Below are positions 38,712 through 62,656 of a DNA stretch of 64,000 nt, in pieces. Numbering within the stretch: position 1 is the first letter of the stretch; the number at the start of each line of letters is the position of its first letter. The stretch lies in contig CAWIVH010000012.1 in assembly GCA_963839475.1 (NCBI GenBank), forward strand, positions 407,711 to 471,710, written 5' to 3'. A program made the position numbers and the translations under genes. This DNA is from an uncultured Acidobacteriota bacterium (GTDB taxonomy: Bacteria; Acidobacteriota; UBA6911). The notes below the pieces were generated by a model that saw only the letters and a program-made list of their open reading frames with translations, was not told where the DNA came from and did no database searches.

Positions 38712-38712
38712 T

Positions 38713-38796
38713 TGTGCAATCTGTCAATCACTATTCGCAAACTATCGTATATTATCCTTGACATCAATGAGTTATAGTTTACAATCTGTGAACTAT
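38713..38796. promoter_or_regulatory. Divergent promoter/operator region of the cro/cI-like switch
   Basis: Two related operator-like repeats (TGTGCAATCTGTCAATCAC at 38713-38731; TTTACAATCTGTGAACTAT at 38778-38796). A near-consensus sigma-70 promoter TTGACA-16-TACAAT (38758-38785) ends ~10 nt before the cI-like ATG (38795), so the cI transcript would be leaderless or nearly so. A leftward TTGACA overlaps the first repeat. Confidence 0.45.
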
Positions 38797-39634
38797 GGGA
38801 AAGATACAGGAAGGATTGAAGGCAATTATCGAAGATCGCAAGGAAATGAAGGGCCTCACGCAGAAGGCGCTGGCGCGTGCGATGGGCGCAAAGCCCGCAA
38901 TGGTCTCGGCGTTATTGAATGGCGAGCGCCGGCTGAACGAGGACTGGATCGAGAAATTCTGCGCTGCGCTTGAAATCACCCTGGGGGATTTGGAGGCGCC
39001 TACGCCGAGAGTTCCAGAGCCCAAGGTCCTTCGGGAATATTCCGAGAAGCTCAAGCGGCTCTATGAGATCTCCCCGGTGCCTGCATTTCGCAACATCAGC
39101 CGGGCCATCGACGACTGGCTCGAGGCGATGGAACCTGTGAGGACCGTACCTTATCTGCCCGTGCAAGCCGATTTCTCGAAACCTGGGCAAGTTGACGAGG
39201 CGATCGCATACCTGGATTCTGACAGACCGCAGCCAGTCGCGATGATTCACGTCCGTCATTATGATGCCGTCCCCGCCGGCGATCCGCGCGAGATGAATCC
39301 GGAAGGCCAGATGTGGATCGACATTGTTCATTCGAAAGGCAAGGATTCCTGGTATACCCTCCGAGTCGTGGGCGACAGCATGTCACCCGACTACCTGGAC
39401 GGGGACATCGTGTTGATGGATTACGCACTGGAGCCCCACGACGGCGACATTGTCGCCGCATTGGTGGACGGCCACGAAAACACGCTAAAGATTTACTCTC
39501 GCCAGGGAGACGAAATCACCCTCACGCCGATCGAAACCAAACACCACTCTCCCCGAAAATTTCACGCGAGCCGGATCACGATCCAGGGTGTCCTGGTCGA
39601 AATCGTCCGCCGCAGCGCCCGCCGCAAACGATAG
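38795..39634 (+). CDS. CI-like repressor: XRE HTH plus LexA-type S24 peptidase domain
   Basis: N-terminal LTQKALARAMGAKPAMVSALLNGERRLN HTH. C-terminal VVGDSMSPDYLDGDIVLMD…TLKIY Ser/Lys dyad. Confidence 0.85.
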   Translation: MGKIQEGLKAIIEDRKEMKGLTQKALARAMGAKPAMVSALLNGERRLNEDWIEKFCAALEITLGDLEAPTPRVPEPKVLREYSEKLKRLYEISPVPAFRNISRAIDDWLEAMEPVRTVPYLPVQADFSKPGQVDEAIAYLDSDRPQPVAMIHVRHYDAVPAGDPREMNPEGQMWIDIVHSKGKDSWYTLRVVGDSMSPDYLDGDIVLMDYALEPHDGDIVAALVDGHENTLKIYSRQGDEITLTPIETKHHSPRKFHASRITIQGVLVEIVRRSARRKR

Positions 39635-39757: not shown

Positions 39758-40927
39758 ATGATCAGAATCGCCGGAACCTACGAGCAGATAAGCGCGGCCG
39801 GGGAAACTGTGAATGCCTTTGTGCCGGCACCCCTTCCCCCAAGGGACCCTCCCCTGAAAATGGATGCCGAGCTCTCCGAATTGATCCGTCGTGCCGAGGC
39901 CGCGGTTGAGAAGCTAAGACTCGCAGGAGCCATGGTTCCTTCCCTCGACTGGCTCTTATATTCCTTCGTTCGTAAGGAGGCCGTTGTCTCCTCGCAGATT
40001 GAGGGCACGCAGGCTACCCTTGTGGACTTGCTCAAGTACGAGGCAGGCGGCAAGGTGGAAGCAGTCGATGACCAGGATGTAAAGCAAGTCTGCAATTACG
40101 TGGACGCGCTCAGCTATGCACGCAAGCAGATGCGAGGCAAGAATGGCCTGCCGCTATCGATGCGGCTCCTAAATGAGGCCCACAGGCGGTTGATGAAGAA
40201 TGTTCCCGGTGGCCACCGCGGTCCGGGCGAAATTAGACGGAGCCAGAACTGGATTGGCGGAACCCGTCCCGGCAATGCAGTTTATGTGCCCCCGCCGCCA
40301 CACTTGCTGGGCGATTTGCTCGGTTCTATGGAGAATTATATTCATGCGGAAAAAGCATTGCCTCCGCTGGCCCGAGCGGGATTGCTGCACTTTCAGTTCG
40401 AGGCGATACATCCGTACCTTGACGGTAACGGACGCATCGGCAGGCTCCTGATCACGTTGCTCCTCGAACACTGGAACCTCCTGGAAATACCTCTGCTCTA
40501 TTTGAGCCTGTACTTCAAACGCCATCGTGCCGAGTACTACCGACTTCTGAATGCCGTTCGGACCGACGGCGATTTCGAGAGCTGGATGAAGTATTTCCTG
40601 GAGGGAGTTGCGATCATTGCGGAAGAGACCGTGGTTACAACGCAGCAACTGTTTGCCCTGATCAATTCTGACAGGACAAAAGTGCTCGCCGGGCGTGCGA
40701 CCTCGGTGGCGGGCATTCGTCTTTTCGAGCTATTGCCTGCCCATCCAATCATCATGGTTGCTAGCGCTGTCAAGCTGCTCAAGACGACGAAACCCACCGC
40801 GACCAAAGCGGTGTCAGGACTCGTTGACGCAGGGATCCTCGTCGAAACCACTGGCCGCCGCCGGGATCGTTCCTTCAACTACGAAGGCTACCTGAACATC
40901 CTGCGCGCAGGAACGGAAACTGAATGA
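39758..40927 (+). CDS. Fic-family protein (AMPylase-type) with N-terminal inhibitory motif
   Basis: Fic motif HPYLDGNGRIGR. SSQIEG matches the [ST]xxxE[GN] autoinhibitory helix. C-terminal winged-helix-like tail. Confidence 0.9.
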   Translation: MIRIAGTYEQISAAGETVNAFVPAPLPPRDPPLKMDAELSELIRRAEAAVEKLRLAGAMVPSLDWLLYSFVRKEAVVSSQIEGTQATLVDLLKYEAGGKVEAVDDQDVKQVCNYVDALSYARKQMRGKNGLPLSMRLLNEAHRRLMKNVPGGHRGPGEIRRSQNWIGGTRPGNAVYVPPPPHLLGDLLGSMENYIHAEKALPPLARAGLLHFQFEAIHPYLDGNGRIGRLLITLLLEHWNLLEIPLLYLSLYFKRHRAEYYRLLNAVRTDGDFESWMKYFLEGVAIIAEETVVTTQQLFALINSDRTKVLAGRATSVAGIRLFELLPAHPIIMVASAVKLLKTTKPTATKAVSGLVDAGILVETTGRRRDRSFNYEGYLNILRAGTETE

Positions 40928-41036
40928 GTAATTTCACGCTAGCCGCATCAAAATCCAGAGTCCTCCTCGAACTTGTCCGCCGCAGCGCCCGGCGCAAAAT
41001 ATTTTTCAAAGGCCTTTCTAGTGACTCAGCGCTACT

Positions 41037-42698
41037 GTGGATGCACTCATGACTCGTGTACGTAACAAGAATGAATTCGCTGCCGGCGCCAGGGCTGTAA
41101 TTAGGGAAGCATTCAATATGCTCCCAATTTTTGCGAGATCTCGAACGCAGGCTGTCTACAACTATGTGGCGGTAGCTGAGGCCGATGCCCACCAGAGTGC
41201 CGCAGAGAGCGCCTCGATAGGTCTTGCAGAGAGCCATAGGAGGTTGGTGGAGTCGAGTTCGCATGCAATTCCCGCGATCTATGAAAGATGTCCCGATCGG
41301 GAAGGCGAGAAACCAACAATCGATAGAGCAGTTTTTGAAGAGGCACGATCTCTTTACGATTTTGGGCATAACCTGAGCCAAGTCGAGTACTGCTTCGAAT
41401 TAGCGGAACGAGGACAGTATGAGTTTTTTGTCGCCCAAAGAGATCCGCGCATAACCTTTCGCTACGCATCTGAAACATCCGATCTGGCTGACACGCGTTC
41501 TCGCGCAATGGATGTTTTATCCCTCCATCAACCTCACGCGGTTGAGCCAGCTCAGGTTTCAGCCGGAACTATCATCGAAGAGCTAAAGACTCTCGTTCCA
41601 GCAACATATCCTGCAAGGTGTGAGTACCAATACAGCGATCGTTTGCATCAGATTGTGAATCCATACTCCAGGGCAAAATTGACACGAACCAACGCGCTAG
41701 ATATTCCCCATGACGTTGCAGTAGGACCGTTGGCTATGCATGACCTTCAAGGATTCTGGGCTGCTATCATGGGAATTGTTGACGTTCATACAGCAGCACA
41801 TTGCATTGCTGCCAATGGCGACTTGAGGCGCCTTGCAATTGATACGGTCGTCCTCTGCCAAGCAGAGCATGATTTTGCAGGATTGATTTCAAAAATCTCA
41901 GGTTTGCCGTCGGCGGCAGTTGAATTAGTAATGGGCTGGTACACATATCGAAGTGATGCCGCGAAGGATTCCCCAATCCTTCAACCGTTTCTGCCTCTAT
42001 CAGGAGGCCTCTTATGCCTTCCATCGCCGTTCGTCAACGGGAATAGCTTTGAACGCAATTTCAGAAAACTGATGCATAATCATCCCAAATTGCGGCCGTT
42101 TTCTAATTCAATAGAATCGTGTTTAGAAGACATTGCTTTGAATTCGCTTTCAGAAATCTTCTCAGAACCAAGATTTCGAGTGCAAATCTGCGTGCAAATA
42201 CCTGGGTTGACGGATGTTGACCTTCTGGTTTTTGATCTGGTTACGGGTTTTACTCTCATCATCCAACACAAGTGGTTGCTTGCGCCCGATACACTTCGGG
42301 AATCTGCTTCAAATGATGAAAAACTGGCAAATGGCGTATCGCAGGCTGTCAAATCGCGCGATTTCCTTCGCCAAAATGCCTCTTTTCTCGTTCGGAAACT
42401 CGGCTTGCCCTCTGATCAGCAAATTCGTGGAATTGAAGCGGTTGTTGTTTGCCGGGGTGCTGAACCAACAGGATTTCTCGAATCGACGGCTGTGCCTGTC
42501 ATTAACGAAACTGCCTTTAGAAATCTGCAGACGAAGTTCGAAAACTTGGAGGATCTTTGGGAGCAGACAACAACCCGGCCTGATCAGATTGAAGCAGCAA
42601 AAAAATCCGCCGAGGTACAATCGCACATCCGGCTCTGCGGCTACGAGTTTGTGATCCCAGGGCTCGCAGTGCAAGTGCCGCTTTCGACCAAAGGGTAG
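41037..42698 (+). CDS. Hypothetical 553-aa protein with a NERD/PD-(D/E)xK-like motif; visibly lower GC than neighbours
   Basis: GLTDVDLLVFDLVTGFTLIIQHKW resembles the NERD core (D..LL….G.F.IE.K) with QHK in place of ExK. The rest is unrecognised. A/T-rich stretches (for example 42040-42200). Confidence 0.4.
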   Translation: MDALMTRVRNKNEFAAGARAVIREAFNMLPIFARSRTQAVYNYVAVAEADAHQSAAESASIGLAESHRRLVESSSHAIPAIYERCPDREGEKPTIDRAVFEEARSLYDFGHNLSQVEYCFELAERGQYEFFVAQRDPRITFRYASETSDLADTRSRAMDVLSLHQPHAVEPAQVSAGTIIEELKTLVPATYPARCEYQYSDRLHQIVNPYSRAKLTRTNALDIPHDVAVGPLAMHDLQGFWAAIMGIVDVHTAAHCIAANGDLRRLAIDTVVLCQAEHDFAGLISKISGLPSAAVELVMGWYTYRSDAAKDSPILQPFLPLSGGLLCLPSPFVNGNSFERNFRKLMHNHPKLRPFSNSIESCLEDIALNSLSEIFSEPRFRVQICVQIPGLTDVDLLVFDLVTGFTLIIQHKWLLAPDTLRESASNDEKLANGVSQAVKSRDFLRQNASFLVRKLGLPSDQQIRGIEAVVVCRGAEPTGFLESTAVPVINETAFRNLQTKFENLEDLWEQTTTRPDQIEAAKKSAEVQSHIRLCGYEFVIPGLAVQVPLSTKG

Positions 42699-42915: not shown

Positions 42916-45831
42916 ATGGGGATTCTCGAAGGCTGCATACCAAGGAAAGACGTCCTCAAAGGCGATCTTGATGATGCGATTTTTGCTGCGGATTTCGGCG
43001 ATCTCATCGCCGGTCGCGGTCCCAAGGTCTACAAGGATCCTCACCTTTTTTTCCAGAACACACACCCTGCCAAACAGCTGTGCAAGATTGCGGAGGTCGT
43101 CTTTGGCCGTCTCGCGAATGCAAAAGAGGAAGGAGCCACGCTGCGGCTGAGCACAGGCTTCGGCGGCGGCAAGACCCACACGCTCATGGCACTATGGCAC
43201 CTCGGCCAAAAGATCGAAGACCCAAAACTGGGAATCGAGCTTCTTCCGGCGGCAGGCAGACCAAAGAGCGTCACGGTTGTGGGCGTGGATGCTGCCAAAG
43301 CAGGAGTACCACAGTTTGGATCGCACGGTGCGATCAAAACCCACAGCCTCTGGGGCGAGATCTTCCTGGCTTTGGGCGGCGAAAAGGCGTTTAGATCCCT
43401 TGGCAAGGCTGATGATCCCGAAGCATCTCCCTCGGAGCACCAGATCGAAGCAATTTTCCCCAAGGGCCCGGTTCTCATCCTTCTCGATGAAATCGTCATT
43501 TACATGGCCAAGCTTTCGGAACGTGGGCAAGGAAATCTTCTGGGCTTCCTGAACTCGCTCGCCTCCGTTGTGCGCAAACGCCCGCAGTCGGTCCTCGTGG
43601 TGACGGACCCGGCCGGCCAGGCAGCATATGCAACGCACGCCGTAAGGCTTGGCGATGCGCTGCTCGATGCCGCAAAAAAGCTCGATGAGGTGTTCGGCCG
43701 CAAGATGAGCGACTTCGATCCGATCAAGGATGAATCCGCTCAGGTCATTGTGCGGCGGCTATTTGACAATGTCGATCAGCCTTCAGCCCAGGCTGCCTCC
43801 GCGACTTATCACAGCCTCTACGAGCGCGTTGCGCAGGATTCCCCCGATCTTCTGCCGAAGGAGGCCACGACTGCCGAATTCTCCAAGCGGTTTGTCCAAT
43901 GTTACCCGTTCCATCCGCGGCTGCTGGACACGGCTCGCGACCGGCTCGGCGCCCTCCAGGATTTCCAGAAGAGCCGCGGGGTCTTGCGTCTATTTGCCCG
44001 CATTCTGCGTGATGTATGGGATGATGGAAATGACTACGAGATCATCTCCGCCGGAGAGATCAACTGGTCCAGCGCCCGGATCCAGGCCGACCTCCTGCAA
44101 CGCCTGAATCGGGACAGTTTCAAGTCCGCCGTTTCGGCTGACATCGAGAAGCACGCCACCGAACTTGACGGTGACGCCCCACGTGGAGTCCATTGCCGGA
44201 CCGCCTCTGCCCTGCTGCTGGAAAGCCTCCCGATGCAGGAAAACAGTGGACTCGACGCAGCCGGCCTGACGTTTGCGGTCTTGCGGCCGGAGGAAGCCGG
44301 CCCGGAACCATCCGAGGCACTGGACCGGCTGGTTGGTACCTGCTGGCACACTTATCAAATGGCAGGAGGAAGGGGATGGCAGTTCCGCTACGAACCGAAC
44401 GTGATAAAACAGATAGAGGAACGTAAGAACCTCATCCCCGTGGAAGACGCAAAGAGCGCAGTCTTGGCTGAGGCTCAAAAGTACTTTTCAGGCCCATCAT
44501 TCAAACTAGCCCCATGGCCGGCAAACGCACGGCAAGTCTCAGAATCCGCCGAGCTTCAGCTGGTTCTCTGCGAAGACGAAAAAACTACAAAAAACGTCTG
44601 TGCCAATTCGGATGACTCCAATCCGTCAGCACCGCTGCCGCGCCGTTTTCAGAATGCTATCCTGGGAGTTACGACGACTCAGGCAGCTTTTGACAATGCC
44701 ATTGAGAGGGCGCGTCGTTTGCTCGCGGCCGAAGCTATTGAGAAGGAAAACAGAACCGGCGATGCGGGTAAGCTCGTACGAGAACAATTGCAGCGGCTCA
44801 AGCCGGAATTTCAGAAGCAGTTCCGGATCCAGACCTGCCGGTCCTTCGACCGCATCGTGCTTGCTACCGGGTCGGTCTACCGGCTCGAAGAACAATTCCA
44901 GGTTTCAGAGGAGCAAATGCTCCAGAAACCGCAGGGACAGTCATGCCTCTTGAAGTTCCTCGACAGCAACACTCTCATCTACAAAGCGGGCGAGTCAGTC
45001 GATGCTCTGCGCTTTGTTCGTGATGTACTACCTGGCTCAACGCCGGAGCCGGATAAGCCAGGCGTCTACACGGCACGATCTATTCACGAGCGATTTCTGG
45101 CCGCACCCAACCTTCGACTCATTCCGGATGGGAGCGTAGTCCGGCAGACCATTTTAAAGGCCATCGGCAACGGTAAGGTCGTTGTGCGCCTATCCGATGG
45201 TCGAGCTTACGATCAGGATGGCTGCGTAGAGGGACCGGACGGAAAACGGCGTCGTGTCACGGGCTCCCTGACAACGCTTTCTCTTGATGACAACAATTAC
45301 GTTACGGAAACCAATTCCGTGTACGGAAAGACATGGACTCACGTTGATCCGACCGGGAGAACAGGGGGGACTGGAACCGGCGGCGGGACTCCACCTCCCC
45401 CGACACCAGGACGCGTTACTGCCACAACATGGGAAAAACTCTTGGAATTTGCCGAAAAAAGGCCGCTGCTGACTCTGGAACTGTCAGCAGAAACTGCCGC
45501 GTCTGCCGCAACCCTTCTGAGCCTCGGCCAACCGCTCAGTGCGGATGAGGTGAAGATCTCCGTGACTGCAAGCGGCGCGCTCAAGGACGGTGGCAATATG
45601 AGCTTTGCGGCAAGCAACGTGAAGCCAACTCACCCGGCAAAGCCGCTGAATGTCGCTCAAACCGTTTTTAACTCCCTATCAGAGGGATCGGTATACGAGG
45701 CTGTCCTTTTGTTGACATTCGGATCGCAAGGAAGGACGGGCCTAATCGAACAGCTAAAAGAGCTGTCAGAAAAGGCAGCCGATAATATCCGCCCCAGCGC
45801 CACATTCGATAAGCCAATGGGATCCGCTTGA
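42916..45831 (+). CDS. DUF499-like P-loop ATPase (first gene of a DUF499/DUF1156/helicase restriction-like module)
   Basis: LSTGFGGGKTHTLMALWHLGQ Walker-A-like loop. A Thr/Gly/Pro-rich linker (TGRTGGTGTGGGTPPPPTPG) before a C-terminal domain. GGGAGG SD before ATG 42916. Gene order with the downstream DUF1156 methyltransferase supports the assignment. Confidence 0.6.
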   Translation: MGILEGCIPRKDVLKGDLDDAIFAADFGDLIAGRGPKVYKDPHLFFQNTHPAKQLCKIAEVVFGRLANAKEEGATLRLSTGFGGGKTHTLMALWHLGQKIEDPKLGIELLPAAGRPKSVTVVGVDAAKAGVPQFGSHGAIKTHSLWGEIFLALGGEKAFRSLGKADDPEASPSEHQIEAIFPKGPVLILLDEIVIYMAKLSERGQGNLLGFLNSLASVVRKRPQSVLVVTDPAGQAAYATHAVRLGDALLDAAKKLDEVFGRKMSDFDPIKDESAQVIVRRLFDNVDQPSAQAASATYHSLYERVAQDSPDLLPKEATTAEFSKRFVQCYPFHPRLLDTARDRLGALQDFQKSRGVLRLFARILRDVWDDGNDYEIISAGEINWSSARIQADLLQRLNRDSFKSAVSADIEKHATELDGDAPRGVHCRTASALLLESLPMQENSGLDAAGLTFAVLRPEEAGPEPSEALDRLVGTCWHTYQMAGGRGWQFRYEPNVIKQIEERKNLIPVEDAKSAVLAEAQKYFSGPSFKLAPWPANARQVSESAELQLVLCEDEKTTKNVCANSDDSNPSAPLPRRFQNAILGVTTTQAAFDNAIERARRLLAAEAIEKENRTGDAGKLVREQLQRLKPEFQKQFRIQTCRSFDRIVLATGSVYRLEEQFQVSEEQMLQKPQGQSCLLKFLDSNTLIYKAGESVDALRFVRDVLPGSTPEPDKPGVYTARSIHERFLAAPNLRLIPDGSVVRQTILKAIGNGKVVVRLSDGRAYDQDGCVEGPDGKRRRVTGSLTTLSLDDNNYVTETNSVYGKTWTHVDPTGRTGGTGTGGGTPPPPTPGRVTATTWEKLLEFAEKRPLLTLELSAETAASAATLLSLGQPLSADEVKISVTASGALKDGGNMSFAASNVKPTHPAKPLNVAQTVFNSLSEGSVYEAVLLLTFGSQGRTGLIEQLKELSEKAADNIRPSATFDKPMGSA

Positions 45832-46259
45832 TGAAGATCAGGGAAGCAACCTTTGCATTGCGTGTGGTGAGACGCCGTAATGGAGATGCCGGAATCGTCT
45901 ACCGCCGTAAGCTTGACTCCCGGCAGCGCGAGCGATTCACGCGTCTTGGGGCGATCTCTCCGCTCGCGTATACGGCTGGCACGCCTCTGCTCAGAGCTGC
46001 GGTACGCGCGACAGCTGGGCAATCGGCGAAGCTGAGCGCAGGTCCATATCACGCACTCGATCCAGATTGGGGTGCTCGGGTGGCGTGCTATGCGCTTCTA
46101 TCTGCGGGATTGCGCGAGGCAGATAGACTGCGCAAAGCGGCCGAGAACATGCGCAACGCGGATGGCGCTGAAGCCGCGTGGTGGCTGGGCCTCATGATGC
46201 GCCCCAGCGGTCGCCGTGCAATCCGTGCCCTGCGCATTCTTGCTGAGGCAGTTCGGTGA
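45828..46259 (+). CDS. Small hypothetical protein embedded in the module (143 aa)
   Basis: ATGA overlap with the DUF499 stop. Arg/Ala-rich, no motif recognised. Confidence 0.35.
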   Translation: MMKIREATFALRVVRRRNGDAGIVYRRKLDSRQRERFTRLGAISPLAYTAGTPLLRAAVRATAGQSAKLSAGPYHALDPDWGARVACYALLSAGLREADRLRKAAENMRNADGAEAAWWLGLMMRPSGRRAIRALRILAEAVR

Positions 46260-46348
46260 TGAATACATGACTATGGATCTCGACGCTGATCCATGTTGCC
46301 AGGTTTCGAATCTTTGCTGCAAGCTGTTGACTTCCCAATGAGGTATAC

Positions 46349-49324: not shown

Positions 49325-49371
49325 CATCATGCGATCCGAAATGTGGATCCGTTGGTAATGGGCCAAGACTA

Positions 49372-52300: not shown

Positions 52301-52962
52301 CCACGCAGGTGTTGGAAAGAGATCGAAAGCTCCTGCCACTAACGGCTTTGAGCGGCGATCTTTTCGCCCTCGCAAACAATCTAGGGCGGCCGGGCGAGTG
52401 CCTGCCATTGGTAATCGGAACCCATCAGCAGGGGGCATTCCGCCGGTCGCTTGCATATTGGGTTGGAGATGGCCAACTGACTCAGGTCGACAGCATGATT
52501 GATCTGCGAGTTCGGCTGGAATCTTGGCATGGCAGCTTTCCCAAACCCGCCGAATGGCTCGCGGCCGAAGCCAAGGCACGACGCGAGGCGCGGAGGCAAG
52601 TGGAACAGATGGCAAACCGGGCCGCGGAACGCGAACGCCTCGCTCTAAAGCGGCAACTAGAAGCTGCACGCCTGCGCCTGAAGCGCGAACTCGGCCGATA
52701 TCTCGCCTGCCTCGATTTGGGGACAGAAGACCTGAACGCTGTCCTTCACCAACAAATGACCAGGGATATCGTCGGCGCTGAGCGTCTCAAAACCGCCTGG
52801 TCAAAGCTCGGCGGCTATCCGGAATGGGAACCGGAACTAATTCGAGAGTTGGACCAGTTCACTCAGTCGCTATTGGAAGGCCAGCGCCGCGCCCGCCTTC
52901 TTGGCAAGGAGCTCGATGCCGCGTTGGAAGATCCGCGCTGGGATGCACGGCTATCTGCCTAG
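49372..52962 (+). CDS. PLD-family (HKD) nuclease domain fused to a SNF2-family helicase
   Basis: N-terminal HAKFGIATD…FSGSGNESASG (HxK…D…GSxN PLD motif). Helicase motifs LCDEVGMGKTIEA (I), LVILDEAHAARRRE (II), VCTDAASEGLNLQAAGAVINYDLPWNPSKVEQRIGRVDRIGQ (V/VI). Confidence 0.8.
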   Translation: MSDSYLQERSWRRFLRGPDPALLEELYVPALASAVGYDRCCSYFSSSVLAAAARGFGRLIERLEAMGDSAPRPAIRLVVNEELIEEDVRVLTETGDIDTLEEVLNRRFKNPKEMLEKQRLAMLGWLVKKGLLQVRVGVMRQSGGIVHAKFGIATDHAGDAIVFSGSGNESASGLLANYERLEVSTSWEDPVRLREYRDEFESLWNDSHPDVHTVSLPEALRLKLIKLAPKEPPIIEPSNAAARHKAAMLWRFIVEAPYLENGGPSCDATAMVDLWPHQRRVVEEAAEAWPDGRLLCDEVGMGKTIEAILVLRRLMAGRGVRRALLLLPAGLLKQWQGELREKGGLVFPRLEGVNTLVWPDDQIQKVSGLPEALTQDFLLMSRETARTEGNFPHLLAAESWDLVILDEAHAARRREQVEGEFNRGTLLLDLLRKLQLHKKTRGILLLSATPMQTHPWEPWDLLTILGEGGRWLADFAGVRNYYGIIAELGRGGCDLVDALKAAELIVADPRFPKAPQELNLVKLESTDAIARAIAFAPPTRRSKVAEWLRRSSPLARRMHRNTRSTLRQYHAAGLLSAPPPSRVVNDVVFDFKDEGERHVYDSITQYIERRFQELEAEKPGKGFVMTIYRRRASSSPLALERSLRRRRDGLVRVVEQRAYDTWIPYEENVDNRDLDDLGEVEMGERISAALPTNPKIARAELTDVDHILEDLQSLRGRDSKRDRFFQELRRVTEDGRSVLIFTEYSDTMEYIRENLVTHYGAALGCYSGEGGQIWDGQGWKTVTKDAITQELHAGRLQALVCTDAASEGLNLQAAGAVINYDLPWNPSKVEQRIGRVDRIGQKLIDVRVVNLFLEHSVDERVYKLLRQRCGLFEHFVGAMQPVLARARKMLLGREPESLVALEDSVSDVGADILANENYLESLAETASVSDPPVAREDLELALEALDGSFGPRARLDHKKSRQVVQTGTSRRLEFGSTTQVLERDRKLLPLTALSGDLFALANNLGRPGECLPLVIGTHQQGAFRRSLAYWVGDGQLTQVDSMIDLRVRLESWHGSFPKPAEWLAAEAKARREARRQVEQMANRAAERERLALKRQLEAARLRLKRELGRYLACLDLGTEDLNAVLHQQMTRDIVGAERLKTAWSKLGGYPEWEPELIRELDQFTQSLLEGQRRARLLGKELDAALEDPRWDARLSA

Positions 52963-53129
52963 CATCCCCTTTTGAAAAACACGAACTCGTAGCGTTAGAA
53001 ATGGGCATCAAACGCTACACTTGAGATCTTACTGATGGCCACAGTCAGCGGCATCCGCTGATACTCGTCCAATAGATCTCCACTTGATTCGACACAATTG
53101 GTTGATTCCGTGCTTGAAGAAACGGCTTT

Positions 53130-56100
53130 GTGGTTATGACCAAGCGCTCATATGGATGGAAGCGTTTCTGGTGCCCGAGGGGAGGAACCTTTAGCCTCTC
53201 TGATGGTGGGTATTTGATCGACCCAGATTCTGAGTATGGGCGTTTGCTGCATCCTGGCGCCGTTTCATTCTCTGAGATGCAAGGTTCCCCCTGCCTGATG
53301 CTGTTGGGTGAACCCGGCATTGGCAAGACAACAGCAATGGCGAGCCACTATTCACTAAGTGTCGCAGAGGCAAGTAAGACAGGTGACGCTGTTCGTTGGG
53401 TGGATCTCAATTCCTTTCAGACGGATGCCATGCTTGTCAGGGAGATCTTTGAGTCTGATGATTTCCAAGAATGGCTGAACGGTACGCACCGATTACATCT
53501 TTTCCTCGATAGTCTCGACGAGTGTCTACTGCGAATCGATTGCGTCACCGCACTCCTGATCAAGGAGCTGAACAAATGCCCCATCGAGAGGCTTGCCCTC
53601 AGGATAGCATGTCGGACAGTGGATTGGCCTGAAGGGATGGAGGGTGCGTTAACCCATCTTTGGGAAAATCAGAGTGTGGACCCATATGAGCTTCTTCCAC
53701 TCCGCCGCCTGGACGTTCAAGAAGCTGCTCGTATCGAAGGTGTCGATCCTCAGGCGTTCTTGGCAGAAATCGAGGACAAACAGGCCGTGCCACTGGCCAT
53801 TAAGCCGATTACGCTCGCCTTCCTCCTGAATAAATATCGAAAAGAGAAACAGCTCCCAACACGCCAAGCAATGCTGTATCGGGATGGCTGCCGCTTGCTC
53901 TGTGAGGAGCTGAACCAAAGTCGAAGGGATTCGCGCCAAATTGGCAGCCTGACAGCTGAACAGCGCCTAATGGTGGCTGGCCGCCTTGCTGCCGTGACAA
54001 CGCTAGGCAACCGCTTTGCTGTCTGGACCGGGACAGATTTGGGAGAGATTCCCGAGTCGGATGTTGCCGCTGCCGAACTGGTTGGCGGTAGCGAGGAAAT
54101 TGATGATAACGCTTTTGTGATTTCCGAGGCTGCCATTTTAGAAACTCTGGGAACAGGCCTTTTCTCTGCCCGTGGACCGCACCGGCTCGGTTGGGCACAC
54201 AAGACGTATGCAGAATTCCTCGCTGCTTTTTACTTGGTAAACAAAAGGTTTAGCCCCAAACAAATACTGACAATTCTGACTCATCCAGGAGACCCGGAAG
54301 CGAATCTAATACCGCAGCTCCATGAAACAGCCGTGTGGGTTGCAGGAATGGTGCCTGATGTTTTCAACCTCATCATGGAGAAGGAACCTGAAGTTCTCCT
54401 AAAAAGCGATGTTGCAGCAGCTGATGTCAGTGATCGCGAGCGTTTAGTAGACAAACTCTTGATAAGTTATGATAAGGGAAAGCTATTGGACCGAGATCGA
54501 AATCTTCGGAGCCAATACCGCAAGCTCTCCTGTCCCACATTGGCAGAACAATTGCGTCCATATATTCGCGATACATCCAAAGACGTTGTGGCCCGTCGAG
54601 CTGCAATTCAGATGGCGTACGCCAATGAAGTCAAAGAGCTTCAGGGTGACCTCCTGGATATTGCCCTGGATCCCCAGCAATCCCACGACATTCGCGTTAA
54701 TGCCGCTTACTCTCTCGTGGAAATGGGTGATGAGGAAATGCGGCTAAGACTAAAACCGCTCGCGGAAGGCACTGCAGGTGAAGATCCGGACGACGAATTA
54801 AAGGGCTGTGGCCTGTCAGCTTTATGGCCATCACACTTGACCGCGGCTGATGTATTTTCCATCTTGAGCCTACCAAAACGCGAGAGTTTATTTGGCGTGT
54901 ATCGACGCTTTCTACTGCATGAGTTGCCAGACAAGTTAAAGCCCGAGGATTTGCCAATAGCCCTTGACTGGATCCTAAAGAATGTCCAGATACATGCTTT
55001 CCCCTATGCTCTCGAGGGACTGAAAGATGCTATTATCCTGAAGGCTTGGCAGTCCCTTGAGATTCCCGCTGTACTCGATGCCTTCGCTATAACCGTTCTA
55101 TTGCTCCTGAAATCAGATCACGAAATCATCAGTCGCTTTGCGAGCCGTGATAATAAACAATTCCTCGGTGGCCAGGAGGATAGGCGACTTCTGGTTGCAA
55201 AGCGAGTTATGCAGTACATCGGACATCATGAAGAAGAGAACTTGTTTTGGTTAGGGTACGGTCAAACTTCCCTGATAAATTCCGCTGATGTCCCATGGAT
55301 TATTGACATAATGCGCGGATCTAAGTCAGACGTGATTCAATCCAACCTCGCAAAACTTGTAAGGATTATTCTTGACTGGAGAAATCCCGACCATCTTGAT
55401 GCGATCATCGTCTCAAGTCGTGAAATCCCAGCTCTCCAAAGAGAGTTCGACTGGTTTCTTAATTTTGTTGAATTCACATCTCCGCGCGCCGAGGAGATGA
55501 AGAATAGATATGCAGAGGAGCAAAGTTGGCAGCAGCGCCCTGCAAGGCCCCCGTTGGACCCTCCGCCAGATGAGCGAATAATAACCGCTTTAAATCAGTG
55601 TGAGCCTGGGGCACATCTCCAATTTATTCAGCTTACCTTTGACATGACTCTTGAGCCCAATAGTACGGAGTATCCGCCGGCGTTTTCATCCGATTTGACG
55701 GACTGTCCTGGATGGAAGAACGCCGACCCTTCAATAAGGGCTCGGATCATTGAAGCTGCGAAACAGTACATCTTTCAAGTGGATCCAGAGACTGCGTCGT
55801 GGTTGGGAAGCAATACCTATCCCTACAAAATGTTAACGGGCTATAAGGCATTCCGGCTTATCTTTCGGGAAGCCCCGATGATGTTGTCGGTCCTTACAAC
55901 TGCTACCTGGCAGAAATGGATAGGGACCCTTCTAACATACCCAATCTACAGCGACAGCCCGGAGGAGGAGTTCAAGAAAGCCCTGCTGAAGGTTGCCTAT
56001 CCACATGCCGCAGACGATCTGGTGAACTGTGTTTTCATTCTCATTGATAAAGCCAATGGGAAGAGCGAACCGCCTTTTGAATTGGAGGTAATCCTAGGCA

Positions 56101-57332
56101 TATGGGATGACCGTCTTGGAAAAGCCCTGTTAGCCAAGGTCCAGAATGAAAGTCTTAGCCCTCCCTGTTTGACCTTTCTGCTTGAGATGCTTCTCAAGCA
56201 GAAAGCCCCAGGGGCGAATGCGTTTGTCCGATCCCTTGTGCAAACACAGCACATCATAGACCCCGGATACCGCAACAGAGCGTTGACAGCAGCGCGCTGC
56301 CTTCTCTTCTCGTCCGACGATGCCGGATGGTCCGAAATCTGGCCAACCATTCTTGCAGACGTTGCTTTCGGCCGCGACCTCATTGCGATGTCGGTAGACC
56401 CCGTTGAGGGTCAGAATGCCCGCATTCCGAAGAAGTTATCAGAAGATCAGTTGGCAGATTTGTTCATTTGGGTTGCCAACGAATACCCGTACTCGGAAGA
56501 TCCAAATATTAATGGAGCTGGCCCCGCAGGATCCAGGCAAGGTATTGCCTGGTGGAAGAACGCAATATTGCACGAGCTGATCGCACGTGGAAATTATTCT
56601 GCGGTGCATGCGATGCAGCGCATCGCTAGCGCATTGCCCCAGCTCGATTGGCTACGGTGGTCGGTATATCAGGCTCTGGAGAGTGCCCGGATTCAGACGT
56701 GGACACCCGCAAAACCACAGGAGTTGGTGACCTATTTTCGCGATCAGGACAAACGACTTGTCCAAAACGGTAATCAGCTGCTCGAAGTCATCATTGAGTC
56801 TCTCGAAAGGATGGAAGCAAGGTTGCAGGGCGAAACTCCTGCCGCAATATATCTTTGGAATAAGATTGATCAAAAGCTCTATCGTCCCAAAGATGAGAAC
56901 GAGCTTTCCGACTTCGTAAAGATCCATTTTGATTCTGATCTGAGGGATAGAGGAATCATCGTCAACCGTGAGGTCGAGATCCGCCGTGGGCAGGAAACTG
57001 ATATCCGTGTAGATGCACTTGTACGAAAGAACCAGGACATTTTTGATCAAGTCACGGTAATAATCGAGACAAAGGGATGCTGGCATCGAGAGCTAGAGGT
57101 CGCCATGGAAAGACAACTTCTCGACCGCTACCTGAGGGAGAACCGGTGCCAATACGGACTATATCTTGTAGGATGGTTTTCTTCCGACAAATGGGACGAC
57201 GGAGACTATAGAAAAAGGGTAGCGCCATCATACTCGATCGAGGAGGCGCGCCGTCGATTCGAAGACCAGGCTGCGCAAGTGCCGAGAAATAAGGAGATAA
57301 TCCGGTCCTTCGTTTTGGATATCACCATCTGA
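53130..57332 (+). CDS. 1400-aa STAND/NACHT-like P-loop NTPase - HEAT/ARM-like repeat array - C-terminal PD-(D/E)xK nuclease-like domain
   Basis: Walker A LLGEPGIGKTTAM, Walker B LHLFLDSLDEC near the N-terminus. About 800 aa of HEAT-like repeats (for example DIALDPQQSHDIRVNAAYSLVEMGDEEMRL). C-terminal E…DIRVDALV…VIIETKGCW matching E-D-ExK restriction-endonuclease-fold spacing. Confidence 0.7.
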   Translation: MVMTKRSYGWKRFWCPRGGTFSLSDGGYLIDPDSEYGRLLHPGAVSFSEMQGSPCLMLLGEPGIGKTTAMASHYSLSVAEASKTGDAVRWVDLNSFQTDAMLVREIFESDDFQEWLNGTHRLHLFLDSLDECLLRIDCVTALLIKELNKCPIERLALRIACRTVDWPEGMEGALTHLWENQSVDPYELLPLRRLDVQEAARIEGVDPQAFLAEIEDKQAVPLAIKPITLAFLLNKYRKEKQLPTRQAMLYRDGCRLLCEELNQSRRDSRQIGSLTAEQRLMVAGRLAAVTTLGNRFAVWTGTDLGEIPESDVAAAELVGGSEEIDDNAFVISEAAILETLGTGLFSARGPHRLGWAHKTYAEFLAAFYLVNKRFSPKQILTILTHPGDPEANLIPQLHETAVWVAGMVPDVFNLIMEKEPEVLLKSDVAAADVSDRERLVDKLLISYDKGKLLDRDRNLRSQYRKLSCPTLAEQLRPYIRDTSKDVVARRAAIQMAYANEVKELQGDLLDIALDPQQSHDIRVNAAYSLVEMGDEEMRLRLKPLAEGTAGEDPDDELKGCGLSALWPSHLTAADVFSILSLPKRESLFGVYRRFLLHELPDKLKPEDLPIALDWILKNVQIHAFPYALEGLKDAIILKAWQSLEIPAVLDAFAITVLLLLKSDHEIISRFASRDNKQFLGGQEDRRLLVAKRVMQYIGHHEEENLFWLGYGQTSLINSADVPWIIDIMRGSKSDVIQSNLAKLVRIILDWRNPDHLDAIIVSSREIPALQREFDWFLNFVEFTSPRAEEMKNRYAEEQSWQQRPARPPLDPPPDERIITALNQCEPGAHLQFIQLTFDMTLEPNSTEYPPAFSSDLTDCPGWKNADPSIRARIIEAAKQYIFQVDPETASWLGSNTYPYKMLTGYKAFRLIFREAPMMLSVLTTATWQKWIGTLLTYPIYSDSPEEEFKKALLKVAYPHAADDLVNCVFILIDKANGKSEPPFELEVILGIWDDRLGKALLAKVQNESLSPPCLTFLLEMLLKQKAPGANAFVRSLVQTQHIIDPGYRNRALTAARCLLFSSDDAGWSEIWPTILADVAFGRDLIAMSVDPVEGQNARIPKKLSEDQLADLFIWVANEYPYSEDPNINGAGPAGSRQGIAWWKNAILHELIARGNYSAVHAMQRIASALPQLDWLRWSVYQALESARIQTWTPAKPQELVTYFRDQDKRLVQNGNQLLEVIIESLERMEARLQGETPAAIYLWNKIDQKLYRPKDENELSDFVKIHFDSDLRDRGIIVNREVEIRRGQETDIRVDALVRKNQDIFDQVTVIIETKGCWHRELEVAMERQLLDRYLRENRCQYGLYLVGWFSSDKWDDGDYRKRVAPSYSIEEARRRFEDQAAQVPRNKEIIRSFVLDITI

Positions 57333-57595
57333 GCTATGTGAAATAAGTGATTGATCTACTGCGCGGTTGAGAATCGAAGAAGCTGAGAGTCCAGAACAGC
57401 AATTGCCAAAACGGGTGGTTTTGCAGACAGGTGCTCCAAATTGTGCCAGGCCTGTCATGCGGGCTTTGTTCGAAAACCGAATGACGCATAAGCCTCAAGG
57501 TTCTGAGGTGTCTCCTATCGGCTACAATGCCGATGCTTTCAGTTTGTGCTCGATCTCCGCTGTGTAACGCAATCCTGATTCTTGAGAGGGGCATC

Positions 57596-59899
57596 ATGCT
57601 CGATGAACGGATCAAAGAGAAACTTGTGGAGGGCTACAAGCGATTGCAGGAGGAGGGAAAACTCCTCTCGATGGCCCAACTTGAGGAGGCTTACCGGACC
57701 TTCCGCAGCCGGTTCGGACCTGAGCGGCTAGCCAATCTGGGCGGAGAAGCGTTGCTAAACCTGATGCATGCTCATGGCAACAAGGACAGCCTCGTATACT
57801 GGCTCGAATTCAAAGATGACGAGGAGTTCCCGGACCATTTCGGAGGTATTGGCGGGGGAAGCGCCCTTAAGTTCGGAATCTTCCGCCGCAAGGAGACAGG
57901 TTCCTGGGCGACCGCCGACGAGAGCAACAATCCCAAAGACATAACCCTTGAAGAGGCAATCGCGTTCGCACAGCGGCACCGGGATGAGCTGCTCAAAGGC
58001 GTAGAGGTCCTAACGAAGCTCCCCCCCAAGGGCACGGACCAGGACTACCTGAATCTCCAAGAGGAATTGGACCGCATTGCCCCGAGCGTCAGCGATCTCG
58101 CATGGGGGCACAAGTATTTCAGCCTCATCTTCCCTGAGAAACTCGATGATTATCACGTCGCGGATTTGCAGCGTTTTCACCTACTTAAGATGATGGTGCT
58201 GCCCCCCGAGGGCAGAGGCCGATACTTGTGCGCCGGCAGATTCGTGGCTGCCGCGGCCGAACTCGATATCCCCATGAATCATCTCACCACCGTCTTGAAT
58301 CTCGTCAATCTCGCCAACGGAAAGAAACATCGTTACTGGCGGGTCGGAACGAGCGATGGCACCAAGCCTCGGAATCGATGGAGCCTGATGCGGGATGAGA
58401 ATTGCGTGGCCGTCGGATGGCCGGACGTCGGCGACCTGTCAGCATTCGATGGGAGCAAGGAGTCCAGAGAGAAACTCCGCGGTTTGATGGCGGAAAAATA
58501 CCCGAGCGTTGCCAGTCAGGTGGGGAACGCGACAGGCCAGCTCTTCAGCTTCGTCCAGACCATTCAGAAGGGTGACCTCGTGCTGGCCGCCGACGGAGCC
58601 ACAGTGCTCGGGATCGCGAGGGTCGAAGGTGATTACCATTACGATGCCTCGTCCGATTTCCCGCATCGCCGTGATGTTGTCTGGCTTGCAAAAGAGGAAT
58701 GGAAAATGCCAAACCCGGAAGGCCTCCAGACAACCGTTCGGGAGGTAAAGAAATACCCAGAAAACATTCTGGAGGTTACGCGGCGCGTCCTCGAAACGCC
58801 GCCCAAGACGCCAACGGATGGGCCACCGATCCACGTTCCAATCCGCCGACTTCCGGTGATTCCGGAACGAATCAACTCCGCTGTAGAACGCAAGGGGCAG
58901 GTCATCCTATACGGTCCCCCCGGGACCGGCAAGACCTACTGGGCGGAAGTGGCAGCGAGGGAGATCGTGGCCGTATGCGAGTTTGGGAAGACCTATCAAG
59001 AGCTCGACACTAAGCAAAGGGAGGTCATCATTGGAACCGGCAAGAATGAAGGTCAGGTCAGATTGTGTTGTTTTCACCCGGCCTATGGCTACGAGGATTT
59101 CATAGAGGGCTATCGTCCTCACTCTCCCCACGGGCAAGTCGTCTTCGATCTCGAGGATGGCATTTTCAAACGATTGTGCAGGGACGCGGAGCGATCAAGC
59201 GGGAAACGCTTCTTTTTGATCATTGACGAGATCAACCGTGGCGACATACCCCGGATTTTTGGAGAGCTTCTGACCATTTTGGAAAAGGACAAGCGCGAAA
59301 AGTCGATCCTCCTGCCAGTTAGCCGCGAATCCTTCCAAGTTCCCAAGAACGTTTTCCTGATCGGGACAATGAACACTGCCGACAGGTCTATCTCGTTGAT
59401 AGATGCCGCCTTGCGCAGACGCTTTGCGTTTATAGAGTTGATGCCTGACAGTTCGCTGCTGGGGAACCAAAGTATTGCAGGACTCCCGCTGAGGCCCTGG
59501 TTTGAGGCTCTGAACAAGCGGGTCTGCGAGCACGTGGGACGCGATGCCCGCAACCTTCAAATCGGCCATTCATACCTTCTCTCCGGCGGACACCCTGTGA
59601 AGGATCTCGCGGCCTTCAAGAAAGCTATTCAAGACGACATCATTCCGCTACTGGAGGAGTACTGCTACGATAACCCGATCGCGCTGGAAAATATCCTTGG
59701 GAAAGGCCTATTCGACTCGCGAGCGCAACGGGTTCGTCATGAGCTTTTCGATGTAGAGAACGAAGAAAAGCTCGTTCAGGCCTTAATAGAGCCCAGCCCT
59801 GAAATCTTGGGCTCGGCACCTGCGCTGAAGAGCATGACGAGTGAAGAAGAAAGCAGCGCTGAGGAAGGCGACTCCAGTGAAACCGACGCCACTAAGTGA
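57596..59899 (+). CDS. mcrB: McrB-like AAA+ GTPase subunit with a ~440-aa N-terminal extension (PUA/EVE-like candidate reader)
   Basis: ILYGPPGTGKTYWA Walker A, FLIIDEINRGDIPRIFGELLT, and McrB-specific LIGTMNTADRSISLIDAALRRRF. The N-terminal HRYWRVGTSDGTKPRNRWSLMRDENCVAVGWPDVGDL… is PUA/EVE-like. GAGAGGGG SD before ATG 57596. Confidence 0.85.
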   Translation: MLDERIKEKLVEGYKRLQEEGKLLSMAQLEEAYRTFRSRFGPERLANLGGEALLNLMHAHGNKDSLVYWLEFKDDEEFPDHFGGIGGGSALKFGIFRRKETGSWATADESNNPKDITLEEAIAFAQRHRDELLKGVEVLTKLPPKGTDQDYLNLQEELDRIAPSVSDLAWGHKYFSLIFPEKLDDYHVADLQRFHLLKMMVLPPEGRGRYLCAGRFVAAAAELDIPMNHLTTVLNLVNLANGKKHRYWRVGTSDGTKPRNRWSLMRDENCVAVGWPDVGDLSAFDGSKESREKLRGLMAEKYPSVASQVGNATGQLFSFVQTIQKGDLVLAADGATVLGIARVEGDYHYDASSDFPHRRDVVWLAKEEWKMPNPEGLQTTVREVKKYPENILEVTRRVLETPPKTPTDGPPIHVPIRRLPVIPERINSAVERKGQVILYGPPGTGKTYWAEVAAREIVAVCEFGKTYQELDTKQREVIIGTGKNEGQVRLCCFHPAYGYEDFIEGYRPHSPHGQVVFDLEDGIFKRLCRDAERSSGKRFFLIIDEINRGDIPRIFGELLTILEKDKREKSILLPVSRESFQVPKNVFLIGTMNTADRSISLIDAALRRRFAFIELMPDSSLLGNQSIAGLPLRPWFEALNKRVCEHVGRDARNLQIGHSYLLSGGHPVKDLAAFKKAIQDDIIPLLEEYCYDNPIALENILGKGLFDSRAQRVRHELFDVENEEKLVQALIEPSPEILGSAPALKSMTSEEESSAEEGDSSETDATK

Positions 59900-61211
59900 A
59901 GGCTCCCCCATTCCGATAACACTTAGCGAGTGGGACATACTCACACCGAAATCCTGCCCAGAACTGGAAGACCTGTTCCTTGACGGGGATGCTGCAACGC
60001 TCAAACTCGTGGAGGGATTGTCCAATTCCGGATTGCTTCAAGTGACGGAACTGAGATCCGGCCTGATGATCAAGACATTTTCCTATGTGGGCCGGCTGAG
60101 ATTGGGAAACCTGAAGATTGCTATCAACCCCAAGATCGAGAGCAACCACCTCCTGGGTCTGCTTCGCTACGCATTTGGATTTCGGAACCTCCGTTTGGCC
60201 GCTAGAGTCGAGCAGAACGTTGGGGCATCAGGCTTTGAGGATCTGCTGGTCAGCCAGCTCAACGCCGAGGTGAAAGAGCTCATCGCGAGAGGGCTCCGGC
60301 GGGCGTACCTGCGATCTGAAGATGACCTGGTTTCGCCAAGGGGCAAGATCGATATTCAAAAACTGGCAAACCGCATCGGTATCGTCAGCCCCAAACTGCC
60401 ATGCTGCCATTACCCCAGGACCGAGGACATCATGCTGAACCGGGTTCTCGGGGCAGGATTGAAGTTGGCTGCTTCAGTTGCGGATGATTTGGGGTTGAAG
60501 CGGGAATCCAATCGACTTGCGGACTTATTCGTGGACCGTGTTTCGCTGATTCGTCTCAATGCGTCGGTTCTCGATTCTCTTGAGCGTCAGATGAACCGGC
60601 TAACGGTCGCCTACGAACCGGCCTTCTCAATCATCAGGCTGCTGTGCGAATCGCAAGGAGTCCTTTTCGAGGGAATCGGGGCTCCGATTCGCCTGCCTGG
60701 ATTTCTCTTCGACATGAACCGATTCTTTCAGGCCCTGGTTTCGCGCTTCCTCAGGGAAAACCTCCCTGATTGGACTGTGAGAGATGAGTATCGCCTGACC
60801 GGAATGATGCGGTACGCGCCTGAGTTCAATCCACTGCATCGAACGTCGCCCAGCCCGCGGCCTGATTTTGCGGTCATGTCGGGGGAGAAAGTCGTCGCGA
60901 TTCTCGACGCCAAATACCGGGACCTCTGGGAGGAGAAACTGCCTCGCGAAATGCTGTATCAGCTGGCAGTCTATGCCATCTCGCGATCTGAGGGGAAGGC
61001 CATCATTCTATACCCGACCGAGCATCCTGAAGCCCGAGAAGCCCGAATAGACGTTCACGACCCGATTTCGCGCCGAGAAATCGCCAGGGTATGGCTGCGA
61101 CCCGTGATCCTGCCCCACCTGGCACTACTGGTGATGACGCACCGCTCAGCAAAGACAGTTCGGGATTGCGCTTCATATGCCAAGTGGCTTGCATTCGGTT
61201 GTGGTGCCTAA
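59841..61211 (+). CDS. mcrC: McrC-like PD-(D/E)xK endonuclease subunit
   Basis: PDFAVMSGEKVVAILDAKYRDLW…YQLAVYA is the McrC D…DAKY nuclease core. Overlaps the mcrB 3' end; GTG 59877 is an alternative start. Confidence 0.8.
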   Translation: MKKKAALRKATPVKPTPLSEGSPIPITLSEWDILTPKSCPELEDLFLDGDAATLKLVEGLSNSGLLQVTELRSGLMIKTFSYVGRLRLGNLKIAINPKIESNHLLGLLRYAFGFRNLRLAARVEQNVGASGFEDLLVSQLNAEVKELIARGLRRAYLRSEDDLVSPRGKIDIQKLANRIGIVSPKLPCCHYPRTEDIMLNRVLGAGLKLAASVADDLGLKRESNRLADLFVDRVSLIRLNASVLDSLERQMNRLTVAYEPAFSIIRLLCESQGVLFEGIGAPIRLPGFLFDMNRFFQALVSRFLRENLPDWTVRDEYRLTGMMRYAPEFNPLHRTSPSPRPDFAVMSGEKVVAILDAKYRDLWEEKLPREMLYQLAVYAISRSEGKAIILYPTEHPEAREARIDVHDPISRREIARVWLRPVILPHLALLVMTHRSAKTVRDCASYAKWLAFGCGA

Positions 61212-61714: not shown

Positions 61715-61723
61715 ATTTTCTCC

Positions 61724-62652: not shown

Positions 62653-62656
62653 TTTT

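Follow-up and report, generated by a model that had tools for sequence, protein, structure and literature searches.

Here we report that a 64,000-nucleotide stretch of DNA from an uncultured Acidobacteriota bacterium of the UBA6911 lineage (assembly GCA_963839475.1, contig CAWIVH010000012.1, positions 407,711 to 471,710; hereafter the window, numbered from its first letter) carries five gene modules in a slot spanning 21.8 kb, which opens directly behind a cI-type phage repressor gene and closes at the end of a lysis cassette. The modules are a SoFic-type Fic protein, a 553-residue protein (p553), a MANTIS/Gao_RL-like system, a NACHT protein and McrBC, and four of the five match known defence families in PADLOC and NCBIfam. 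We consider it likely that the slot is an accessory-gene hotspot of a temperate HK97-type siphophage at tRNA-Met, filled through at least four acquisitions with genes that would defend the lysogen.

Hotspot behaviour of the slot

The slot was compared with the corresponding region of ten other elements (L002, _000849, _000399, P0167, L114, L028, L005, L112, L003 and P0173), and its content differs in each of them. Recognisable defence or toxin-antitoxin genes are present in seven of the ten. The slot of L002 holds AbiEi/AbiEii and a transposase (insertion sequence element), and that of the viral contig _000849 holds Dcm, Vsr and a type II restriction enzyme (PADLOC E 3.8e-133). The 16.8-kb slot of the viral contig _000399 begins with PDC-S14 only 18 nt past cI and continues with RadC, a GajB-like UvrD-nuclease, a TmtA-like protein, type III Mod and Res, and a SocA-like protein. 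Two HNH proteins, a 1455-residue Eco57I-type methyltransferase, an SMC-like ATPase and a PLD-SNF2 helicase occupy the slot of the JGI contig P0167; L114 has a 519-residue open reading frame (ORF) without a family match and a PLD/ZacB-like protein, L028 a zeta toxin, AbiE, Macro and SIR2, and L005 a HigB-like toxin, while the genes in the slots of contigs L112, L003 and P0173 are not recognisably defensive. None of the cargo genes of the window recurs in any relative examined. The breakpoints of homology are sharp and coincide with two stop codons, that of cI at 39633 (L002) and that of p94 at 61432/61452. Because the flanks are conserved, the breakpoints sharp and the cargo different in each relative, the comparison indicates that the slot from the cI stop to the p94 stop is a genuine defence hotspot. 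An earlier note on this DNA, made from its letters alone, had suggested looking in related genomes for alternative cargo between the cI-like gene and the lysis cassette, and hotspot behaviour is what that search found.

Further relatives were sought in several ways. A metagenome scan with the cI alignment returned only distant S24/UmuD-like proteins without backbone genes, and IMG/VR scans with the cI alignment and with p94 returned no additional relatives. More distant homologs of Sak4, at 68-70% identity, belong to phages with another gene organisation and say nothing about the hotspot. The element was also assembled independently, as the Logan contig ERR10755939_669766 (L027), which covers the window from about 40796 to 61697 and breaks near both edges of the hotspot, at the 3' end of the Fic gene and inside p94, which hints at co-existing variants with common flanks in the sample of that assembly.

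Position of the slot within one phage

Since conserved phage backbone is found on both sides in relatives, the cargo can be placed, from the sequences compared, inside one temperate HK97-type siphophage integrated at tRNA-Met. On the left side, homology with the relative L001 stops at 34799, at tRNA-Met, to the left of which are host-type cytochrome and URO-D genes. The segment from int to Sak4 has 78-88% nucleotide identity in L001, L002, L006 and L007, and Sak4 scans of genomes and IMG/VR showed that contigs of Acidobacteriota metagenome-assembled genomes as well as viral contigs share it. On the right side, the genes p94, p307, SLT and p101 have 75-78% nucleotide identity to the IMG/VR contigs 3300032069_000399 and _000849, from 61432/61452 to about 63463. 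The 61.6-kb _000399 has, upstream of its lysis cassette, genes for a portal, an S78 prohead protease, an HK97-type major capsid protein, a lambda-like tail tube and a tape-measure-like protein of 1580 residues. The portal of this lineage is at most 50% identical to that of any GenBank phage, and a putative tail protein of one relative had no match among GenBank phages. In the circularised phage, cro, Sak4, int, attP, the structural genes and the lysis genes read one way, and only cI and the cargo read the opposite way.

Within the slot, cI ends at 39634 and SoFic starts at 39758, so that the cargo follows the repressor immediately and on the same strand. The plus-strand order is SoFic, p553, DUF499, DUF7680, DUF1156 methyltransferase, PLD-SNF2 helicase, NACHT, McrB and McrC, with gaps, from cI to McrC and with revised starts, of 123, 121, 217, -4, 89, 47, 167, 263 and -59 nt. 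Cro, Sak4, p139, the DUF559-like gene, HTH_17 and int form one minus-strand operon whose genes overlap or are closely spaced.

The earlier note had proposed that the defence modules belong to a single temperate element, lie in the repressor-proximal position of lambda rexAB, follow cI in the same orientation with short gaps, and stand opposite an early lytic-type operon (cro-like, Sak4, int). These proposals agree with the phage backbone flanking both sides, with the adjacency and shared strand of cI and SoFic beside a divergent cI/cro switch, with gaps that are all at most 263 nt, and with family searches that place cro to int on the minus strand. Its gene list was likewise confirmed by an ORF scan and family searches, save that DUF7680 (45828-46259) had been missed. 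The label of an unusually large stack holds against the 3.2-kb average of P2-like hotspots, which the slot exceeds about sevenfold, but not within the lineage, in which a related viral contig carries 16.8 kb.

Mosaic origin of the cargo

The G+C content at third codon positions (GC3) is about 0.70-0.80 in host and backbone genes and 0.71 in cI. In the cargo it is 0.66 for SoFic, 0.46 for p553, 0.57-0.62 for the DUF499 block, 0.53 for the NACHT gene and 0.64-0.67 for McrBC, which makes at least four classes. Moreover, the decayed 3' end of another cI allele lies directly behind SoFic, at the left edge of the hotspot; it reads ..VLLELVRRSARRK and has an in-frame stop and a 2-nt deletion. We interpret this remnant as the scar of the recombination that brought in the present cI-SoFic segment. 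The GC3 classes and the cI remnant after SoFic together indicate that the cargo was acquired piecemeal, in at least four separate acquisitions. Family searches detected no recombinase, transposase or integrase in the cargo (39.6-61.4 kb), and no terminal direct or inverted repeats flank the cargo block.

The predicted defence modules

The coordinates of the modules and of the neighbouring phage genes are collected in Table 1. SoFic contains the Fic motif HPYLDGNGRIGR, in agreement with the pattern HxFx(D/E)GNGRxxR, and its score against the NCBIfam equivalog is 166, which does not reach the cut-off of 550.

The second module, p553, matches no family in Pfam at E <=0.01. AlphaFold2 gives a confident model for it, the closest solved structure is the defence protein Upx, and its family comprises 1338 clusters at E <=1e-3, without a name. 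On the strength of this model, p553 is a candidate for a new single-gene defence nuclease. The description of this ORF as NERD-like in the earlier note survives in the broad sense of a PD-(D/E)XK nuclease fold, as modelled by AlphaFold2, but not in the strict sense, the Pfam NERD family being unmatched. One homolog of p553 adjoins integrases in the IMG/VR contig L115.

The four genes of the block at 42916-52962 match, in order and in domains, MtsA, MtsB, MtsC and MtsD of MANTIS (formerly Gao_RL), a DUF499-centred, BREX-related type 2 system. However, MtsB of MANTIS is a DUF3870 protein, whereas the second, small gene here encodes DUF7680; the NCBIfam equivalog cut-offs are unmet (140 versus 1200, 204 versus 1000 and 338 versus 1100 bits); and, unlike MANTIS, the four-gene block has no MtsR-like regulator. 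Because the scores are far under the NCBIfam cut-offs and DUF7680 replaces DUF3870, the block is, as far as its sequence goes, a divergent relative of MANTIS/Gao_RL. The PADLOC models of Hma also match, but HmaA has a C-terminal NOV_C nuclease and not an N-terminal PLD domain. It is possible that the DUF7680 protein, which sits in the MtsB position, is an alternative small subunit.

In the NACHT/STAND nucleoside triphosphatase (NTPase), Walker A (GEPGIGKT) and Walker B (LFLDSLDE) motifs were read in the sequence, and no Pfam or PADLOC match was found for this protein. The antiphage proteins EruA and HyoA of NCBIfam have the same plan of an N-terminal NACHT NTPase with Walker A/B followed by a long helical region. 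The match is, however, limited to residues 48-802 and to 237 bits against a cut-off of 1000, and the C-terminal 600 residues are unmatched. For this C-terminal region no PDB sequence match was obtained, and the single-sequence AlphaFold2 model is unusable (predicted local distance difference test 40), so that a nuclease-like motif in it is no more than conjecture.

The NCBIfam scores of McrB and McrC are both under the equivalog cut-offs, and the two genes overlap or abut. The likely start of McrB is 57596, where the ATG has a Shine-Dalgarno sequence, GAGAGGGG, in front of it; the longest ORF would begin inside a terminator-like hairpin. The 3' end of DUF499 (45691-45708) and, 12 kb away, a segment towards the 5' end of McrB (57782-57799) form a perfect inverted repeat of 18 nt, GTATACGAGGCTGTCCTT; chance alone would give about 0.004 repeats of this kind in 22 kb.

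Table 1. Features of the window, with positions counted from its first letter
Feature	Position	Strand	Basis and remarks
tRNA-Met (CAT), integration site (attL side)	34801-34877	+	ARAGORN; Rfam tRNA, 68 bits
Tyrosine integrase	34947-35996	-	Pfam Phage_integrase, E 5.6e-21; 92% identical to the L001 integrase
HTH_17 xis-like gene	35993-36394	-	Pfam/PHROG
DUF559-like gene	36483-36800	-	Pfam/PHROG
p139 (139 aa)	36818-37237	-	Pfam/PHROG scan
Sak4-like AAA_24 ATPase	37234-38487	-	Pfam/PHROG
cro-like HTH_3 gene, 68 aa	38484-38690	-	Pfam HTH_3, E 3.5e-10; start 38690
Genetic switch, back-to-back promoters and operator-like sites	38700-38796		Promoter and palindrome scans
cI-type repressor (HTH and S24 self-cleaving protease), 279 aa	38795-39634	+	Pfam HTH_3/HTH_26 and Peptidase_S24, E 1e-18
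SoFic-type Fic AMPylase	39758-40927	+	PADLOC SoFic, E 1.7e-108, residues 17-383; Pfam Fic_N and Fic
Decayed 3' end of another cI allele	40935-41000	+	Direct repeat of 39560-39634, 87% over best 39 nt
p553, unnamed family, C-terminal PD-(D/E)XK nuclease fold	41049-42698 (longest ORF from 41037)	+	AlphaFold2
DUF499 AAA+ ATPase	42916-45831 (longest ORF from 42883)	+	Pfam; PADLOC HmaC/DUF499; NCBIfam DUF499_antiphage
DUF7680, 143 aa	45828-46259	+	Pfam, E 1.2e-9; overlaps the DUF499 gene by 4 nt
DUF1156 N6-adenine methyltransferase	46349-49324	+	Pfam; PADLOC HmaB/DUF1156_MTase; NCBIfam DUF1156_antiphage
PLD nuclease-SNF2 helicase	49372-52962	+	Pfam; PADLOC PLD_Helicase; NCBIfam phospholipD_antiphage
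NACHT/STAND NTPase, 1400 aa, helical-repeat region	53130-57332	+	NCBIfam EruA, E 6e-70, and HyoA, E 1e-50, both partial
McrB (AAA_5, extra N-terminal domain)	57596-59899 (longest ORF from 57527)	+	Pfam AAA_5, E 2e-14; NCBIfam McrB, E 8e-43
McrC	59841-61211	+	Pfam McrBC, E 7e-32; NCBIfam McrC, E 5e-18
End of late/lysis operon: p94, p307, SLT lysozyme-like, p101	61430-63467	-	Pfam SLT; convergent with the cargo

Repressor and genetic switch

The repressor has the features of LexA/cI S24 repressors, that is an N-terminal helix-turn-helix, a C-terminal S24 domain, a Ser/Lys dyad and an Ala-Gly site. The S24 motifs GDSMSP and STLK and the PAG cleavage-site motif are kept across an alignment of 30 cI homologs, in which K232 (STLK) and A161 are invariant and S195 (GDSMSP) and G162 nearly invariant. 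RecA-stimulated self-cleavage of the repressor is plausible because the dyad and the Ala-Gly site have been retained. The promoter of cI, P(cI), is TTGACA-16-TACAAT at 38758-38785; it has 11 of 12 consensus positions and is the top match in a 20-kb scan. The cI ATG lies 9 nt past the -10 box and has no Shine-Dalgarno sequence. P(cI), the distance from the -10 box to the ATG (9-12 nt) and the first codons are kept in L028 and L002, whose repressors are 72-73% identical, and the N-terminus MGKIQ is kept in the 30 homologs. Since promoter, spacing, first codons and N-terminus are all kept in relatives, the cI mRNA is predicted to be leaderless or nearly so, as the earlier note had read from the position of this LexA/S24 cI-like gene behind a near-consensus promoter, a reading that the Pfam searches, the promoter scan and the conservation in relatives support. 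Lambda cI is likewise translated from a leaderless mRNA. The internal TTG start given to cI in the NCBI record (272 residues) is probably wrong, because the longer N-terminus is conserved.

The cro promoter has the -35 box TTGACA, a 16-nt spacer and the -10 box GATAGT (38727-38700), with the ATG 9 nt past the -10 box; the cro gene calls of relatives are likewise 68 amino acids. As both cro and cI start 9 nt past their -10 boxes without a Shine-Dalgarno sequence, both sides of the switch look leaderless. A 23-bp palindrome, ATAGTTTACAATCTGTGAACTAT, at 38774-38796 overlaps the P(cI) -10 box and the cI start and is unique in the window, and five of the window's 33 ACTAT/ATAGT sites cluster within 38700-38796. 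In a scan of the window, this operator-like palindrome and half-site cluster had no copies in the cargo and occurred only at the switch. The divergent cI/cro layout is kept in relatives, and the repressor is the phage's own immunity repressor.

Expression of the cargo

The slot is where lysogenic and late transcripts would converge. Accessory genes could enter it without damage to any function of the phage, and those placed on the cI strand could be read in the lysogen. The strong, leaderless-type P(cI) would transcribe cI and at least the first cargo gene, and it is very likely, judging from the sequence, that cI and SoFic share one transcript, because in relatives cI and the first gene of the cargo are separated by 18-200 nt. 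The distal modules would probably be reached by read-through mixed with weak promoters of their own. In a consensus scan, no promoter with at least 9 of 12 matches was found in the cargo gaps, P(cI) being the only one at this level upstream of a gene start, and no canonical terminator was found after cI, SoFic, p553 or the DUF499 block. Between the PLD-helicase and NACHT genes, the spacer (52955-53100) is strongly structured (z -3.1 versus shuffled controls), with two clean hairpins and no U-tract, and may be a non-canonical terminator or a processing site. The 263-nt gap before McrB may hold a terminator and an McrBC promoter. We infer lysogenic expression, a transcript structure of this kind and, from homology, defence activity, by which the modules would protect the lysogen, and hence the prophage, against other phages. 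Any SOS effect on the cargo might go in either direction, because P(cI) is near consensus and is overlapped by the palindrome.

Prophage backbone and size

The tRNA was the sole match in an Rfam scan of 34-64 kb. A search of the window for attR, with up to three mismatches allowed, found no second copy of the tRNA-Met 3' end, and attR must therefore lie past 64 kb. Exact-protein look-ups with SLT, cI, p94 and the 99%-identical Sak4, meant to extend the sequence past this point, found no record. The Sak4-like protein has an extra N-terminal segment of about 90 residues with CxxC that is absent in most homologs (326 residues), and the Sak4 homolog of L114 (7996-9441; 481 residues) carries an HNH_3 domain.

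The length of the prophage is estimated at about 60-64 kb, from the 21.8-kb slot and the backbone of about 37-40 kb that two viral relatives share. These relatives, _000399 (61.6 kb; L020/L116) and _000849 (45.7 kb; L024/L117), are 95% identical in the capsid and 92% in the portal, and their collinearity extends from a point upstream of the terminase region as far as p94; of the 16 kb by which they differ, 12.7 kb are in the slot. Either the capsid has slack, as it would, for instance, if packaging were headful and terminal redundancy variable, or the variants with large cargo are grounded.

Alternative readings

What the hotspot reading says of gene content, of position within the phage, of hotspot behaviour and of mosaic origin is shown by the comparisons above; several points nevertheless weigh against the reading. 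The structural genes and attR lie past the window end at 64000, and the defence role of p553 is a candidate one, drawn from its fold. In relatives the cargo mostly, though not always, runs with cI; AbiE in L002, the post-cI genes in P0173 and the lysis-proximal genes in _000399 are reversed. A terminator-like hairpin with a T-run (57516-57535) and the 263-nt gap stand ahead of McrB, and weak promoter-like sites (8 of 12) occur in four of seven gaps, not clearly above background in a consensus scan that cannot decide read-through. The hairpin, the gap and the weak sites also count against the full form of the earlier note's inference, in which all five modules make up a single lysogenic super-operon, some 22 kb long, that is transcribed from P(cI) and tied to the repressor and to RecA/SOS cleavage of its S24 domain. 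This proposal draws on the cI strand and short gaps of all the cargo, on P(cI) as the only promoter of its strength upstream of a gene start, on the missing canonical terminators after the first modules, on the intact catalytic and cleavage motifs of S24, and on bstA and rexAB, which share the repressor promoter in their phages (PMC8585504). We nevertheless think it improbable. The modules differ in composition and were separately acquired, so each probably came with its own regulation; the spacer before the NACHT gene is strongly structured; no operator copy is found outside the switch; and an SOS effect might have either sign, P(cI) being near consensus. A bolder version, to which we give slimmer prospects still, is an expandable, repressor-locked slot with cargo of up to about one third of the genome, forming one lysogenic unit that is switched with lysis-lysogeny and SOS, the repressor-plus-cargo combination being under selection and outliving the phage. 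It points to L028 (CAYYTC010000056.1), in which positions 9170-15824 retain, between host genes, only a tRNA-like fragment and P(cI) with the repressor, followed by some 5 kb of defence genes; in this prophage remnant the repressor-plus-cargo unit has outlived the phage. If this version were true, a single P(cI) unit switched at induction would also spare the phage's own DNA.

Two other readings concern the element as a whole. The prophage might be grounded, being defective or too long to package, so that the stack grew free of capsid limits and the locus is now a chromosomal defence island with cI as its regulator or relic. This has a real though minor chance of being correct: the estimate of about 60-64 kb contrasts with the 45.7 kb of a relative that shares 95% identity in the major capsid protein with the 61.6-kb _000399, decayed relatives exist (L028, with P(cI), cI and 5 kb of defence genes, and the fragments L005 and L004), and phage hotspots are normally small owing to capsid limits (PMC9122126). 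Every backbone gene in the window is, however, a full-length ORF closely similar to that of relatives, the 61.6-kb relative combines 16.8 kb of cargo with a head and tail module that is complete, and a phage with headful packaging can take extra length by losing terminal redundancy. That the cargo entered the prophage in one piece as a mobile element of its own, whether an integrative island or a transposon, is hardly credible. The sharp edges at the cI and p94 stops and the breaks of the Logan contig near both edges would fit such an insertion, but the missing recombinase, transposase, integrase and terminal repeats led us to reject it, and neither the four or more compositional classes nor the unrelated cargo that relatives hold in the same slot agree with it.

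Relation to known systems and significance

The concept of the hotspot reading, represented by rexAB, bstA and the P2/P4 hotspots, is already known; what is new is its scale, its host lineage and the presence of large multi-gene systems. In lambda (rexAB) and BTP1 (bstA), the genes that follow cI serve defence and are expressed in the lysogen, and the cI-downstream region has been described as a mosaic hotspot of lambdoid phages (PMC8585504). As in the window, rexAB and bstA immediately follow the repressor gene, share its strand and run counter to the lytic operon on the cro side. Those phages carry one or two genes in this position, whereas nine itemised genes in 21.8 kb are found here; the far boundary in lambda is gene N and here the end of the lysis cassette; the rexAB and bstA phages are unrelated to the present one, whose portal is at most 50% identical to that of any GenBank phage; and rexAB and bstA share the repressor promoter, while cotranscription here is predicted at most. 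P2-like hotspots average 3.2 kb and P4-like ones 2.6 kb and adjoin cos (Rousset et al. 2022, PMC9122126). They resemble the present slot in their conserved flanking phage genes and in their variable, defence-rich content. However, they are without large systems such as BREX or type I restriction-modification, which has been attributed to capsid limits (PMC9122126), and here a 10-kb BREX-related system, a 4.2-kb NACHT gene and McrBC are present.

These findings extend the repressor-linked defence locus from lambda and BTP1 to an uncultured phage lineage, probably of Acidobacteriota soil bacteria. They also show that 17-22 kb, with large multi-gene systems among the content, can fit into a phage hotspot, contrary to the idea that phages are limited by capsid size to short systems, and capsids that are 95% identical despite a 16-kb difference in length raise the question of packaging capacity for this lineage. 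If the prophage is inducible, it would be a test case for the limit on accessory DNA in siphophages and for how a phage avoids its own restriction-type cargo during replication. The hotspot is also a place in which to seek new defence genes, such as the nuclease-fold family of the 553-residue protein with its approximately 1300 clusters.

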